Of a DNA stretch of 64,000 bases, positions 1 through 59,179 are shown one piece after another. The translations under genes were made by a program, and so were the position numbers. Origin of the DNA: Escherichia phage JLBYU08. Each line of letters begins with the position of its first letter. Position 1 is the first letter of the stretch. Location of the stretch: sequence record OK272482.1, one strand, 5' to 3'. The notes under the pieces were generated by a model. It was given only the letters and a program-made list of their open reading frames with translations. It was not told where the DNA came from and ran no database searches.

Positions 1-309
1 ATGTACAAGCATTCCAGAGATCTTGAAAAAGATGCTGTGTTTGGCGACCAGATGAAGGAGCTGATCAAACTTATAGGTAGAATGGAAGATAAGTTTGACA
101 CTAAAATCTACATCGATAGCAAGATCTTCAACCACAAAATATGGACAAATGTGTGTGTTGGGCTACATGGTGATAAAGATATTGTAAATTTGGTTGTAAT
201 AAAGTTCATAGTGTGGCAGAATAGGACTATACGTTATTCCGATCCACACTTACTTGTTTATCCTATAAAAGACCTACTACAGAAGGAGGACTGCAATGCC
301 GTTATTTAA
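1..309 (+). CDS. hypothetical protein (may be 5'-truncated at window edge)
   Basis: Open frame from position 1, co-directional with downstream genes; no recognisable motif. Confidence 0.35.
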   Translation: MYKHSRDLEKDAVFGDQMKELIKLIGRMEDKFDTKIYIDSKIFNHKIWTNVCVGLHGDKDIVNLVVIKFIVWQNRTIRYSDPHLLVYPIKDLLQKEDCNAVI

Positions 310-565
310 TCTTGCTAAACCTGTAGAAGCACACCAGTTTGATGGAAGCTCTTCATCAGTATCTGATCTGCAACGGTGGATTGATACAGGTGTGTTTACA
401 TCGTCACCTGTTCGGACCAGAGATATTCGTCGCATGTGTGAGCTTGTTGAGCCGTTTGGCAACTTGGTTTTGTACCAGGGAGATTGGTTAGTTGACTTTA
501 TGGGAGACTGGTTGGTAATGAGTAAAGAAGAGATGTTTAAAATTTTTAAGGAAGAGGCCGAGTAA
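296..565 (+). CDS. hypothetical protein
   Basis: 89-aa ORF, stop overlaps ligase start (ATGA-type coupling). Confidence 0.4.
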   Translation: MPLFNLAKPVEAHQFDGSSSSVSDLQRWIDTGVFTSSPVRTRDIRRMCELVEPFGNLVLYQGDWLVDFMGDWLVMSKEEMFKIFKEEAE

Positions 566-1848
566 TGCATCAAATCAAAACAACACTGTACGCACTGAAC
601 AAAGATGGCAGCTACCAACAGTGGAAAGTATTCACTGATGGCGAAAAGGTTATCGTAGAGTTTGGCAAGCTTGACGGTAAATTGCAGTACAAAGAGACGG
701 TATGTACACCTAAAAACGTAGGTCGTGCCAACGAGACTACAGCTGAGCAACAGGCCGAGCTTGAGGCTATCAGCAAGTGGGAAAAACAAGTCCGTCTGGG
801 GTATGTTGAAAACATGGAAGATTGCGAGCAGGGTGTTGATCTTTTACCTATGCTGGTGCATGACTACCTGAAGCGTGGCAAGGCACTTAAATTACCTTGC
901 TGGATCTTGCGTAAGTTAGATGGCCTTCGTCTGCTTGTTGTTTTCCAAAATGGTGAGCCTAAATTTATTTCCCGTGGTAATAAGTCCTACCCTATTCAAG
1001 GAAAGCTTTTAGAGCAACTTCGTTCTTTCCATTCTACCACTGGGATTAAACAACTTGATGGGGAACTATACATTCATGGTCTTCCTTTGCAGAAAATAGT
1101 GTCTCTTGCTAAACGGTGGCGCACACAGGAAGAGATTCAGGCCGAGATCGATAAAGACTATGAGGCAGATAAAAAACGCCGTCATGCAGCAATTAAGGCA
1201 GGCTTATCAACATACAAAAACTTCAACAAGGTAGATATTCCTGTCGATGTTGAGCCTGTTCGTGATGATTTGCGTTACGGTGGATACTGTAGCTACGATC
1301 TGGAGTATCACATTTTTGATATTCCTAGCGACAAGGTGTGGTGGGATCCAGAAACAGAGTCTGGACGCTGCAAGGATCTTATGGATGCAGAGGATACCGT
1401 TACCACTCTGATGCTTGATCATATCAAGGTTGTTGACGCAGAGCTTGCGTACACAGTTGATCATTGCGAAGAATCTGTTGGTATATTCATGTCCGAAGGA
1501 TATGAAGGTACTATCATGCGTAATTTCTGCGGTAAATATGAGTATGGTCAGCGAACATCTGAAGCATTGAAATGGAAAAAGTTCAACGACGCAGAGGTGA
1601 AAGTTATTGACGTTGAGAAAGATAAGAATGATGAAGGTGTTCTTATCTGTGTTGACAAGGAAGGTGTTGTTGTTAAAATGAAGATGAAAGGCACGCACGA
1701 GGAGCGTAGCTATGACAGGATGCAGGAAATGATCGGCAAGTTTGTCACCTTCAAATACCAAGCAAGGACAGAAGACAACAACTACCAATTCCCTGTCGGT
1801 ATCTGCGTCCGAAATGTTAACCCAGACACTTGGGAGGTGCTTGAATGA
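565..1848 (+). CDS. ATP-dependent DNA ligase
   Basis: Adenylation motif I KxDGxR (LRKLDGLRLL); size and layout like T4/T7 ligases. Confidence 0.85.
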   Translation: MHQIKTTLYALNKDGSYQQWKVFTDGEKVIVEFGKLDGKLQYKETVCTPKNVGRANETTAEQQAELEAISKWEKQVRLGYVENMEDCEQGVDLLPMLVHDYLKRGKALKLPCWILRKLDGLRLLVVFQNGEPKFISRGNKSYPIQGKLLEQLRSFHSTTGIKQLDGELYIHGLPLQKIVSLAKRWRTQEEIQAEIDKDYEADKKRRHAAIKAGLSTYKNFNKVDIPVDVEPVRDDLRYGGYCSYDLEYHIFDIPSDKVWWDPETESGRCKDLMDAEDTVTTLMLDHIKVVDAELAYTVDHCEESVGIFMSEGYEGTIMRNFCGKYEYGQRTSEALKWKKFNDAEVKVIDVEKDKNDEGVLICVDKEGVVVKMKMKGTHEERSYDRMQEMIGKFVTFKYQARTEDNNYQFPVGICVRNVNPDTWEVLE

Positions 1849-1971
1849 TGTAGGAAGGTTCAGTAGGTAACGGTAGCCAATTGAATGATGGTTTTCAATC
1901 GGCACCTACATAACCACACTGTGTAGTGTTGTTGATCGTGTTAGTTATGAGTAAACTGGAGAGTATGAAAA

Positions 1972-2442
1972 ATGAAACTTGATAAAAATGTTCAACGAAA
2001 AGCTTTCTTGGACATGATCGCATATTCGGAAGGCACAGATAATGGTAGGCAACCCACTAAGGATCGGGGATACGATGTCATAGTTGGTGGCAAGCTGTTT
2101 AGCGATTACAGCAAGCATCCAGGTGTGTACGTTAAGCTAAATGCTAAACTTACCTCCTCCGCTGCTGGTCGTTACCAGGTTTTGGAGAAGTTTGCTAAAC
2201 ACTACATGGAACAGTTAGGATTGCCAGATTTTGGCCCCGCCAGTCAGGACAAGATTGCGTTGCAACTGATCCGTGAGTGCAAGGCTCTCGCCGACATTGA
2301 CGAAGGGCGTATCCACGAGGCTATCCATAAATGCCGTTCCCGCTGGGCTTCGTTACCTGGTGCTGGATATGGTCAGCATGAACAGAAGATCGAGAAGTTG
2401 ATCGAGGTGTTTAAAAAGGCAGGCGGTGTTGTCCTTGATTGA
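1972..2442 (+). CDS. endolysin, lambda R-like lytic transglycosylase
   Basis: Blocks QRKAFLDMIAYSEGTDNGRQ, GYDVIVGG, AGRYQVL, WASLPGAGYGQ match phage lambda R almost residue for residue. Confidence 0.9.
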   Translation: MKLDKNVQRKAFLDMIAYSEGTDNGRQPTKDRGYDVIVGGKLFSDYSKHPGVYVKLNAKLTSSAAGRYQVLEKFAKHYMEQLGLPDFGPASQDKIALQLIRECKALADIDEGRIHEAIHKCRSRWASLPGAGYGQHEQKIEKLIEVFKKAGGVVLD

Positions 2443-2505
2443 TCATTGACATAACCACACGGACGTGGTATTGTTACCTCATAAAATGTTTAGGAGGGCT
2501 TAACC

Positions 2506-2712
2506 ATGAAAGATTTTCTGTTGGCAATTTTGTTCATGGTAGCATGTCTGTCCTGTGGTGTCGTGTTTGCAGGTGAAACAGCGTATCTTGTCGATGTATA
2601 TCGGGACAATGGTAAACGTATTTGCCTTTATGAGACAAGTCAAGGTGAGCTCTACGAGCTTGTGAAACAAGGTGAGGCAGGTTCCTGCCCTCGCACCCAT
2701 TTCTTTGAATGA
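2506..2712 (+). CDS. small membrane/secreted protein next to endolysin (holin or spanin candidate)
   Basis: N-terminal hydrophobic segment LLAILFMVACLSCGVVFAG; immediately downstream of endolysin. Confidence 0.4.
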   Translation: MKDFLLAILFMVACLSCGVVFAGETAYLVDVYRDNGKRICLYETSQGELYELVKQGEAGSCPRTHFFE

Positions 2713-2740
2713 GGGAGAACACGTGGAAGACGGACGTTTA

Positions 2741-3187
2741 ATGAAGTCTGAACGCAGGCTTATTGTGCAACTGATCCCAGAAACAGCTTGGTATAATAAC
2801 CTCCGAAACGCTGTGAAGAAGAGTGAGTGGGATAAGATACGTAAGAAGTGCTATAGAGAAGCCAACTACACTTGTGAGGTGTGCGGCGGTAAAGGCAGCA
2901 AACACCCAGTGGAGTGTCATGAACTTTACACTTTCGAAGAGGGAGTGATCCGGCTTGTCGGACTGATAGCACTGTGCCCGGATTGTCACACATCGGTGCA
3001 TCCTGGGTTAGCAAATATCCGTGGAAAGTATGCTCAGGCAGTTAATCAGTTGGCTAAGGTGAATAAGATCACCAAGAGTATGGCAGAGGCGTATTACCGA
3101 GACTGCTTTGCAGAGTGGCGTGAGCTTAGTAAAGTTCCAGAATGGAAGACTGACTTTTCGTGGATAGAGGGTTACCTTGATGGCTAA
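2741..3187 (+). CDS. HNH-like zinc-finger endonuclease
   Basis: CxxC ... H ... CxxCH arrangement (CEVCGG, ECHE, CPDCHTSVH); start chosen at ATG 2741 to avoid overlap. Confidence 0.5.
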   Translation: MKSERRLIVQLIPETAWYNNLRNAVKKSEWDKIRKKCYREANYTCEVCGGKGSKHPVECHELYTFEEGVIRLVGLIALCPDCHTSVHPGLANIRGKYAQAVNQLAKVNKITKSMAEAYYRDCFAEWRELSKVPEWKTDFSWIEGYLDG

Positions 3188-56014: not shown

Positions 56015-56368
56015 TTAGTGACAATCACCCCAATTACGACCACACAAGTATTCACCTGTGATCTGGAACGGGACTCCCATCATTTTAGAAGCTTGCCAGA
56101 AGCAATGTACCACCATTTCGCCCACAGGACTCCAGATAAGTTCAAGCTTTCCGTCATCGTTCAAGATAGGATCGTACACCGTGTTTCCGTCTCTGTCAAC
56201 CACTTCGTTTCCGTTTTCATCCTTGCGTGCCTTTTTGTACTTATGACCGTCGAACACATGAAGTTTGGCCTCCTGCTCTGCCTTAAATGCTTCCAATTCT
56301 TCAATTGTGTCGAAGGTGTACACAGTCTTATACTTCGGTGTGTCAGGTACTTGAAGCTGATATTCATC
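56015..56368 (-). CDS. DNA polymerase family A, exon 2 (C-terminal part including motif C Asp-Glu)
   Basis: Begins DEYQLQV and ends ...GEYLCGRNWGDCH, like the T7 gp5 C-terminus ...TEGKMGPNWAICH. Confidence 0.65.
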   Translation of the reverse strand, partial: DEYQLQVPDTPKYKTVYTFDTIEELEAFKAEQEAKLHVFDGHKYKKARKDENGNEVVDRDGNTVYDPILNDDGKLELIWSPVGEMVVHCFWQASKMMGVPFQITGEYLCGRNWGDCH

Positions 56369-56697
56369 CATCTGTTCAGGTAGGTCGTTAAGCTACCCCG
56401 CACCATTACGTGCATAGCCATACAGTTTCCTGTATGGATCGGACTACCTCACTGCCTTGGTAACAAGGCACCTCCCATTTCGACCGCACTTGCTGGCCTA
56501 CTCTACTCGCTTCTTCACACCAACCTATGTTGGAGCTATGCTTTCGATAGTCTCTGAACGTTCATCCTCTCGGATGCTTCGCTGCGGATTAGCATATTGA
56601 GCTTTTACCATACTCAGGTGTAAAAGTCAACTTAGCTTTCCCGTCAATTAAAGAGGTTATTCGACATAGATCACTCTATGAAGCCACAATGTTATTT
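56369..56697 (-). other. group I self-splicing intron (no internal ORF)
   Basis: Minus-strand core elements P AATTGACGGGAAAGC, Q AATCCGCAGC, R GTTCAGAGACTA, S GTAGTCCGATCC; exon 1 ends in U, intron ends in G; boundaries inferred. Confidence 0.7.
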
Positions 56698-59121
56698 ATG
56701 GTAATAGATAATACGACGGACACCTTCATCGTACCACCCACGCTTCACCATTTGGTGGTGCATGAGTATCCCAACTAAGTCACACAACGATGCACCACCA
56801 TTTTGTTGGTATGCATTAAGTAAAGAGTGTTTAGATCGGGTCCAGATGGCATGACCATCAAAAGAGTATATAAACTTCTTACCAGTTGCTTCCCAGAATT
56901 TCTCCAGATCCTCTTTACGCCCCTTAAGACCAGGGTTGGCATCCCAAAGCGCATCGATTACCCTTTGCCCCAACTCTGGAGAGATATCCAGCATGTCTGC
57001 AACTTTATCTTTTTGTGCCCCGTACATAACCCCATACGTGATAGGTTTACCGTCGTTACGGGACACCTCTCTGCCTGCTACTTTTGTATATGCCTCAGCA
57101 TTGTTTTGGTGTGCGTCCCCGTTACTTACAACATCATAATACAAGCCGTTGTCGAACTCAAAGGCACCCCAAGCCCCGATAAGCTGCTCTAAGTTGGACC
57201 CGTCAATACCGATCTCAAAGTATCCTGGAGGAACACCCCACAGACTACGCATCTCTTTACCCATAACCACTTTAGGAGATGGTTTAGGCATGTTTGCACA
57301 AATACTGTGTTTCTGTCGGGAAGTGTTTGTTAGCCCAGAACTTTTAGCAGGAAGCTTATGGTCAATCTTCAAACGTGGGTGATTAAGAAGACCAGTATCA
57401 ACCTTATCCTCCTTGATTGGATCAAGGACCGATCTGCGGTTTCGCAATGATAACCACAAGACGATATCTTTAGCCATCTCTCCGTTCAATTTTTCAAGAT
57501 TTGGGCATAGGTGTCCAAACGTATCTTTCAGCTGCGGAGAAGTAATAAGTGCTCTGGCTTTTCTACGTATTTTCCCGAATACTTCCTTTTTAATCCTTTC
57601 GGAGTTAGGAAAGCTTCGGAACTTGTGCACGGTTGTCTGAAACTTAGCATCAGTTTTGTTCCAGAAGTTGATAATCAGGTCACAATACTCTGACTCTAAA
57701 AGCTCGTCCATGTATGCATATACTCGTGCATCAACATCTGCATCAGGTAGAGCTTTCTTCTTGCTGTCTTTAGTTACATCCTTAGTTCTCCACATTGTCG
57801 GAAGCCAACCAGCACTGATCAGGTATCGCTTAATGTCGTCCTGATTGCTGATTTTCATAGGTATCTTGCAGTCCGGCATTCGCTTCTGCTGTAGATCACT
57901 TATTGCCTGATCCATCAGCTCTTTAGGTAAAGGTTGTGGTGTGGAAGTGCCCTTAATATAGCCTCTCAAGAAATCAGCCATCTTATCAGGGTCTTTGCAG
58001 CCCATCTCTTCACACCATTTTATCCCCATCTTGCTGACATCTCCTGTGGAGGTAAATGCTCGCTTAGGCGGGGCTTTGAACTCCAAAGCACTCATGTCCA
58101 CAGGATAGCCAAGCTTATCTTTTAACCATTTCCAACCATTGTTGGAGATTGTCCCATCTTGGTTAAACGGCTTTTCAGGGAACTTGGGCCGCTGAGACAT
58201 TGACAGCTCTTTTAAAGGAAGTTGAGGTTCAACACGATCAGCGATTTCTTTCATCCACGCATCGCAACGGTCACGTAAAGCAATAGCTCCATCTATGTCG
58301 AAGTATACACCCTGACGGGCCTGCAGCTCCATCAGGAAGTGCTGCAGCATGCCTCGACGTAGTGCGTTCTTCCAGGTGATCTTCTTGAACCCTTTCGGCT
58401 TCTCTTTGGCTGGATCGTACATAAAGTTCTGCATGTCAGATTTGCCGTAGAATACACCTTTTGATTCCGCTACCAGCTCTTTCCAGAGCAGCTCCTGGAT
58501 GATAACGTCCTCGAATACACGATCCACATACTTCCACAACGGAAGATCGCGCCAGTCATCAATTTGAACTTTCTGGTTACCAAGGGCGTAGCCCCATGCC
58601 ATAAGGCCGTGAGGACCAACAGGCTGCATTTTCTTAGTAACCGGGTTGAATACAGAGTCCGGACAACCTTTTGGTAAAGGGCGATCAGGCCACAAGATTC
58701 GGCTCATCGCCAACGTATCAAACAGGTTAACCTGGTGGTCGTTGATAGTCCCCATACATTTAGGATCACGGAACATATCAAAATGAATACCGGATAATCT
58801 CTCCATCAGCATAAAGTCATAACTGTAGCAGTTATGGCAGTTCAAAGCTGTTGGTGACCAGTCGGAATTGCCTGTAAGCCAACCCTCCAACTCTGAAAAA
58901 TCTGCTATGCGAACTTCAAAATCTTTATAAAAAGTTTTCTTTGCCAGAATAAAGTTCTTAGCCTTCTCTATATCCTCTTCGGAGTAGTGTGTGCGGTCAT
59001 TTAGAGGAAGGAACAGCATAAAACGGTTCTTATTCAGCTCTTTAAACAGGCCGCAGTGATAATAAAGATCTGGGTCTTCCAGCAAACCGGATGACTCAAA
59101 ATCGAACGACCACATGCTCAT
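56698..59121 (-). CDS. DNA polymerase family A, exon 1 (3'-5' exo and polymerase domains to the His of motif C)
   Basis: Exo I DFESSG at N-terminus, motif B KPITYGVMYGAQ; uninterrupted frame would stop 2 codons after the inferred splice site. Confidence 0.8.
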
Positions 59122-59179
59122 ATACAGTTCTCCTTAAAGGGGAGGTGGTTGTACTACCCCTCCCACTCTTTGTTAAACA

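Follow-up and report, generated by a model that had tools for sequence, protein, structure and literature searches.

In Pectobacterium phage CB7, the intron of the DNA polymerase gene, which carries the HNH gene CB7_50, splices in vivo, as RT-PCR with Sanger sequencing of the cDNA has demonstrated (PMC7344957). Among the T7-like phages, PhiI and W31 are reported to have self-splicing introns of subgroup IA2 at site 881 of E. coli Pol I, with an endonuclease ORF in P6a (PMC3428280). This subgroup is recognised by the elements P7.1 and P7.2, located between P7 and the 3' strand of P3 and linked by G-U-A (PMC3428280). Other group I introns of Pol A genes, those of SPO1, SP82, Bastille and Pf-WMP3, are mostly HNH-bearing and lie in a conserved functional region (PMC3428280; PMC11878797), although their site is position 674 of E. 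coli Pol I, which lies in the fingers, and not 881, in motif C (PMC3428280). For rV5, the genome paper describes introns in the terminase, and the polymerase is presented as a 775-aa protein, its intron being unmentioned (PMC3606486). In the BASEL paper, comparative annotation served to define the ends of introns (PMC8594841).

The DNA analysed here, hereafter the window, is a stretch of 64,000 nucleotides from Escherichia phage JLBYU08 (OK272482.1). Its polymerase region is 92–99% identical to more than 100 public genomes, with FFH2 as the closest (98.7%), and the source phage is a Vequintavirus, i.e., an rV5-like coliphage. About 20 records named "Campylobacter phage" (MG0656xx, host Campylobacter jejuni) are also 93–98% identical to this Vequintavirus region, and they look like mislabelled or contaminant coliphage genomes. 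On the minus strand, positions 56369–56697 almost certainly represent an endonuclease-free group I intron, whose splicing would rejoin the two exons of a family A DNA polymerase (Pol A) at motif C. The features of the gene are as follows (coordinates, strand, description, basis):

56698..59121, minus: Pol A exon 1, 808 codons, ending ...RRIIYYH, last codon CAU (ORF; aligns to T7 gp5 468–653)
56369..56697, minus: group I intron, IA2-type, no ORF, 329 nt (Rfam, intron-less alleles, covariation)
56369, minus: terminal guanosine (omega-G) at the 3' splice site (G in 10 of 10 aligned introns)
56015..56368, minus: Pol A exon 2, DEYQLQV...GRNWGDCH plus stop (ORF; junction and C-terminus resemble T7 gp5)

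Gene context and intron boundaries

The Pol A ORF was found as the first-pass annotation had described it, running on the minus strand from 59121 to 56692 including the stop, and it is preceded by a primase-helicase gene (61258–59180, minus strand). Past ...RRIIYYH, the frame of exon 1 reads AAA UAA, and therefore stops two codons into the intron. A second minus-strand ORF (56371–56015) has 118 codons and ends in ...GRNWGDCH. The resemblance of this C-terminus to T7 DNA polymerase, also proposed at first reading, holds, as GRNWGDCH shares the pattern G-x-N-W-x-x-C-H with GPNWAICH of T7 gp5. The likeness of exon 2 to T7 gp5 is limited to the junction and this extreme C-terminal pattern, and a search of exon 2 alone against PDB sequences returned no significant match.

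Removal of the intron restores an uninterrupted Pol A frame. The spliced product, of 925 aa, matches T7 DNA polymerase structures (E=7e-16), and Pfam DNA_pol_A covers its residues 620–822, across the junction, with a score of 31.8 bits, just under the cut-off of 34.3 bits. The alignment with T7 gp5 also crosses the junction, where RRIIYYH/DEYQL (the slash marks the splice junction or insertion point here and below) stands against AYMAWVHDEIQV, corresponding to T7 His653-Asp654-Glu655. The motif expected by the first-pass annotation from splicing, YHDEYQLQV, was aligned with T7 gp5 through H653-D654-E655, YYH/DEYQL of the spliced Pol A being compared with WVHDEIQV. In family A polymerases, this Asp and this Glu are the acidic residues of motif C, and their E. 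coli Pol I counterparts are Asp882/Glu883. The predicted junction peptide of the spliced polymerase is ...IIYYHDEYQLQVPDTPK, and the predicted junction of the spliced RNA reads ...TATTACCATGATGAATATCAG....

Through an Rfam scan of both strands of the 64-kb window, a match to RF00028 (Intron_gpI) was obtained at 56707–56419 on the minus strand, with 72.5 bits and E=1.9e-16, the gathering score of the model being 50 bits. This match covers the model end to end (1–253), and is a positive outcome of the covariance-model scan suggested at first reading. No second Rfam match was detected within the 64-kb window with the threshold relaxed to E<=1, and a tRNA scan found no tRNA genes in the 64-kb window.

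The splice sites had been placed after the U of codon CAU (56698) and after the G at 56369, and both positions agree to the base with the intron-less sister alleles. These Vequintavirus alleles read ...TATTACCAT/GACGAATAT across the site, uninterrupted; the motif C site of intron-less Vequintavirus genomes is ...TATTACCAT/GACGAATATCAG..., and CarlMeissner, which is intron-less, reads ...TATTACCAT/GACGAATATCAGCTTCAAG... at the junction. As a boundary test, 350 nt of exon 1 and 350 nt of exon 2 were joined at the proposed splice sites and compared with a phage collection. The joined 700-nt exons match 15 of 29 full-length close relatives as one piece, with 91–98% identity, the 29 being an evenly spaced sample of the ranked matches; CarlMeissner, JES2013, pangalan and slur12 are examples of the intron-less type. 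Since the intron-less alleles align unbroken with the joined exons, the intron is defined to the base as 56697–56369, 329 nt. Read-through and an intein were considered and ruled out, because 329 is not divisible by three and the frame of exon 1 meets a stop after two codons. No sense-strand ORF of at least 30 aa lies inside 56369–56697, in line with the earlier description of an intron devoid of an ORF or homing endonuclease; a mechanical ORF (56421–56161) begins in the 3' end of the intron and enters exon 2 out of frame.

Ribozyme structure and proposed splicing

The Rfam alignment was the starting point for the structure. The four core elements that the first-pass annotation had located coincide with the P4 and P7 strands of this alignment. 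Element P comprises intron positions 49–63 (plus-strand 56635–56649), AAUUGACGGGAAAGC, and is the P4 5' strand, and element Q, at 108–117 (56581–56590), AAUCCGCAGC, is the P4 3' strand. Element R, at 139–150 (56548–56559), GUUCAGAGACUA, includes J6/7 and the P7 5' strand, and element S, at 250–261 (56437–56448), GGUAGUCCGAUC, is the P7 3' strand. In the drawn structure, P7 forms a pseudoknot with P3. The structural features, in the 5' to 3' order of the intron, are:

56684..56701, minus: P1, exon CCAU plus intron AA with guide UUGUGG, U-G wobble at the 5' splice site (invariant in 10 introns)
56688–56691 with 56365–56368, minus: P10, guide CAUU can pair with exon 2 GAUG (invariant in 10 introns)
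56665..56680, minus: P2 hairpin with a GUGA (GNRA-type) tetraloop (6 of 6 pairs with both-side changes, 100% of cells paired)
56583..56657, minus: P3 5' strand, P4 (elements P and Q) and the extended P5/P5a/P5b arm (Rfam alignment, pair counts)
56559..56581, minus: P6 and P6a, the P6a hairpin CAUCC-GAGA-GGAUG standing at the position of the relatives' 528-nt HNH cassette (FFH2 alignment, prefix/suffix identity)
56548..56554, minus: P7 5' strand, within element R (GUUCAGAGACUA), pairing with 56441–56446 (100% paired, 2 double-sided pairs)
56482..56541, minus: P7.1 and P7.2, peripheral, between P7 and the P3 3' strand, joined by GUA (covariation)
56441..56474, minus: P3 3' strand, P8 hairpin and P7 3' strand (element S) (P8, 4 of 6 pairs with both-side changes)
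56378..56437, minus: P9 (GAAA tetraloop), P9.1 and P9.2 (100% paired, 8 pairs with both-side changes)

Covariation was evaluated with ten introns at the same Pol site, 70–96% identical to that of the window once endonuclease cassettes were removed, from Vequintavirus, Avunavirus, Seunavirus, Certrevirus and a Vibrio phage. Standard pairs occur in 93.8% of the cells, against 33–38% when the 3' partners were slid, a percentage that is inflated by deriving the tested structure from the window sequence; the counts of double-sided changes are free of this effect, and such changes affect 37 of the 89 pairs, against 3–8 in the slid controls. The covariation score was 0.342, a value reached by none of 500 shuffles, compared with about 0.05 in the control. 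Compensatory changes were found in P2, P3, P4, P5, P6a, P7, P7.1, P7.2, P8, P9, P9.1 and P9.2. Minimum-free-energy folding by itself predicts the local hairpins, with only a modest advantage over shuffled sequences (z=-2.2). Across the ten introns, covariation supports a fold of subgroup IA2 type, P1–P10 with P7.1/P7.2 and P9.1/P9.2.

The core of P1 is the pairing of exon CCAU with intron GUGG, followed by two further A-U pairs; its presence, with the U-G wobble proposed at first reading, was verified in 10 of 10 related introns. P10 is paired in 97.5% of the cells and shows no variation among the ten introns, and all ten likewise retain the omega-G and the U-G wobble at the 5' splice site. 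As P1 and P10 never vary, neither helix draws support from covariation, an invariance to be expected given that one strand of each is conserved coding sequence.

Covariation supports both P7.1 (56509–56541) and P7.2 (56482–56498). GUA lies directly 5' of P7.2; the linker of the window is the longer GAGUAGAGUA, and shorter relatives have plain GUA. Because P7.1 and P7.2 are joined by GUA, the intron is placed in IA2 according to the published criterion (PMC3428280). In the Av-05 intron, the tip of P7.1 has been swapped wholesale for a different perfect hairpin. With this periphery, the extended P5 and P9.1/P9.2, the term "minimal ribozyme" used in the first-pass annotation was an overstatement.

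Two candidate pairings were set aside. A long-range pairing of GCAUAG (intron 157–162) with CUAUGC (281–286) gives six perfect pairs in the window and is lost in the Avunavirus and rV5-type introns; it was rejected as chance, and the local P9.1 hairpin is preferred. The P5 register of Rfam, which contains U-U and A-A mismatches, was dropped for a bulged register with the extended P5a/P5b arm. This arm (helix 6) is paired in just 77.6% across genera, since its length differs between relatives, and its details are tentative.

In the mechanism proposed from the standard group I pathway, exon 1, intron and exon 2 would be carried by a single pre-mRNA, whose intron would fold into the P1–P9.2 core. 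An external guanosine held in P7 would attack the phosphate that follows the last base of the His codon CAU, a U held in P1 by its wobble with the G of the guide UUGUGG. The freed 3'-OH of exon 1 would then attack after the terminal G (56369), with P10 aligning the GAUG of exon 2. The ligated product, ...YYH-DEYQLQV..., would have motif C and the C-terminal 117 residues restored, and unspliced RNA would yield a polymerase devoid of the motif C Asp-Glu and of these last 117 residues. Having no homing endonuclease, the intron cannot home by itself.

Alleles in Vequintavirus and rival explanations

At the H/DE site, four alleles are found in Vequintavirus, namely none, 276-nt, 328/329-nt and 842/843-nt introns:

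no intron: CarlMeissner, JES2013, pangalan, slur12
276-nt intron, no ORF: rV5, MaxTheCat (Bas57)
328/329-nt intron, no ORF: JLBYU08 window (329), SYGMH1, HMD-6, JEP1 (328)
842/843-nt intron, 168-aa HNH gene in the P6a loop: FFH2, Mangalyan, FV3, WalterGehring (Bas51)

The same intron is widespread in Vequintavirinae, mostly in HNH-bearing form, and Avunavirus likewise has ORF-less and ORF-bearing forms. The 168-aa HNH ORF gives a weak match to Pfam HNH_3 (E=0.0028, below the curated cut-off) and is annotated as HNH in the records. The exact allele of the window is in no public phage record, and an HNH gene is present in all eight records that are at least 99% identical to its intron. The HNH-bearing introns of FFH2, Mangalyan, FV3, WalterGehring and others share with it the gene, the splice sites and the ribozyme, and identity is complete with Mangalyan over window intron nt 1–121 and with FFH2 over nt 136–329. 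They differ in their P6a stem, which is extended and contains the 168-aa HNH ORF, the window having a 14-nt hairpin at this place. The sole difference from the Mangalyan/FFH2 flanks is this hairpin, CAUCCGAGAGGAUG, in place of a 528-nt cassette (ACUAAAGGGG...HNH ORF...CCUGGUAGU).

The 328-nt introns of SYGMH1, HMD-6 and JEP1 occupy the same site, have no ORF and contain an identical P6a hairpin; about 6% of their positions depart from the window, three compensatory pairs in P2 being among these, and the SYGMH1-type backbone also occurs with the cassette, in WalterGehring. The 276-nt type of rV5 and MaxTheCat, at the same site and also without an ORF, is distinguished by a short P5 and P7.1 and by a different P6a, P8 and P9. 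The Asp codon of motif C is GAU in every intron-bearing allele examined and GAC in CarlMeissner, the one intron-less allele that was read. GAU provides the P10 pairing GAUG/CAUU, and the contrast may stem from co-conversion with the intron or from selection for P10.

Since hairpin and cassette have no sequence in common, the swap is not a simple deletion. Its likeliest origin, on the sequence comparison, would be a mixed infection with recombination in the identical P6 flanks. The homing cycle, with endonuclease genes moving independently of introns, is an established picture, and the swap fits it. The broader proposal is that the endonuclease module is mobile independently of the intron, entering and leaving the ribozyme through recombination in the conserved P6 flanks, and it may be right or wrong with about equal chances. 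If true, all stages of the homing cycle (the empty site, the endonuclease-free intron and the endonuclease-bearing intron) would coexist in one genus, offering a tractable E. coli system for measuring endonuclease gain and loss.

The absence of the endonuclease, together with the frequency of intron-less alleles in the genus, which the homing-cycle model leads one to expect, could also be read as the sign of a decaying, splicing-impaired relic of an HNH-bearing intron, dependent on a phage or host factor and nearing loss. Such decay is very hard to reconcile with an intron that, outside the P6a tip, is base-identical to HNH-bearing introns (the first 121 nt to Mangalyan and the last 194 nt to FFH2), and whose core helices are all undisrupted. 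Moreover, the hairpin that stands in for the cassette, a stable stem of 5 bp capped by a GAGA tetraloop, recurs in other ORF-less alleles, and we regard this explanation as the least probable of those weighed.

It is scarcely more probable that the intron stays unspliced and that Pol A consists of two polypeptides associating after translation. An arrangement of this kind has been reported for the split NrdA of Aeromonas phage Aeh1, whose two polypeptides are said to associate post-translationally. Gene callers and most GenBank records indeed give two separate CDSs, the AUG at the intron end just before exon 2 is an apparent start codon, and one CB7 intron, in a different gene, did not splice (PMC7344957). 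Nevertheless, separate translation is unlikely, because the sequence upstream of exon 2 (CCUACCUGAACAGAUG) contains nothing Shine-Dalgarno-like, the "start" varies, being UUG or GUG in other alleles, the helices of the ribozyme are under selection, being kept by compensatory changes across the ten introns, and the CB7 intron at the same site does splice (PMC7344957). The G of the "start" is explained as the terminal guanosine, and two polypeptides would part the His from the Asp-Glu within one catalytic motif. The preferred reading is that of a group I intron splitting Pol A at motif C, as first proposed, which was upheld by the full-length RF00028 match, the intron-less alleles, the T7 gp5 alignment and covariation.

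The main value of this result is the correct annotation of an essential polymerase as one 925-aa enzyme. Most records contain two polymerase CDSs, SYGMH1, HMD-6 and JEP1 among them, and gene callers yield a truncated 809-aa protein and a 118-aa "hypothetical protein" (SYGMH1, HMD-6, JEP1 and rV5 records). BASEL records, in turn, annotate a two-piece polymerase join, in WalterGehring for the HNH form and in MaxTheCat for the 276-nt form. The knowledge of group I introns or of phage polymerases is left unchanged by the finding, and the allele series could serve studies of the gain and loss of homing endonucleases.

Further mobile elements were observed around this gene. In JEP1 and Mangalyan, Pol exon 1 is longer by 969 nt (extracted segments 1–1978 and 1–3006). 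The JEP1 insertion, about 322 aa in frame (CYSGDTQIL...VAVCGN, then C, after ...VVSNGDAH), looks like an intein just upstream of motif B, and it is absent at the matching site of the window, at about 57190 (codons ...GDAH/QNNAEAY). FFH2 has a free-standing HNH gene between primase-helicase and polymerase (extracted segment 349–1083), whose counterpart in the window is a 58-nt gap, 59122–59179. Considering the free-standing HNH gene, the intein and the intron alleles together, the polymerase locus is a hot spot for selfish elements. The P4–P6 segment of the intron (nt 85–161) is also 84–94% identical to short stretches elsewhere in Vequintavirus genomes, one of which falls in the terminase gene (e.g., MaxBurger 1215–1292), and it matches unannotated spots in Salmonella/Escherichia phage genomes of about 86 kb. 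These matches suggest that other genes, too, contain related group I introns, of which the window has none.

Introns at the same site in other phages

The CB7 intron has the identical insertion point, RRIIYYH/DEYQLEV, and the same 5' start and guide (AAGUAACAUUGUGGC) as that of the window, and in PBES02, which is close to CB7, the core is about 70% identical. The CB7 intron differs in its HNH ORF, its shorter P7.1 and its genus and host. In PVP-SE1-type Seunaviruses (Salmonella phage PVP-SE1, GU070616.1, 13433–14416), a LAGLIDADG gene, and not an HNH gene, stands between the Pol exons at this site, with flanks related to the HNH-bearing introns. Vibrio phage K412 has a 254-nt ORF-less intron at H/DE (extracted segment 1501–1754; Rfam, 77.3 bits) and a free-standing HNH gene about 240 nt downstream of the polymerase (extracted segment 1994–2641), an arrangement that resembles the proposed precursor state of mobile introns. 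A scan of IMG/VR with the first 21 intron bases returned 6 contigs, which added nothing.

The group IA2 intron of the PhiI/W31 type was reportedly described by Bonocora and Shub in 2004. A T7-like intron is found at the exact site in Salmonella phage Sal_R1S, which reads ...TGGGTGCAT/AAACTATCTCATTGTGCAC...AGAAAG/GATGAGATT. It is inserted at WVH/DEIQV (CAU/...G/GAUGA) and has a similar guide, CAUUGUG, IA2 features and an endonuclease ORF in P6a. However, it has no P2, its ribozyme can be aligned with the Vequintavirus one only at the consensus elements, and the HNH proteins of the T7-like and Vequintavirus introns are unrelated in sequence (E=0.43). The comparison suggests that one hot spot was colonised separately, or that the two introns diverged there very long ago. 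Since neither the T7-like intron nor its HNH protein can be aligned with those of Vequintavirus, the H/DE site is a recurrent target.

Both the kind of intron and its insertion site are already known in related phages. The window adds one allele to the natural series at the recurrent H/DE hot spot, and the new detail is small: an HNH-type intron backbone with a 14-nt hairpin in place of the 528-nt cassette.
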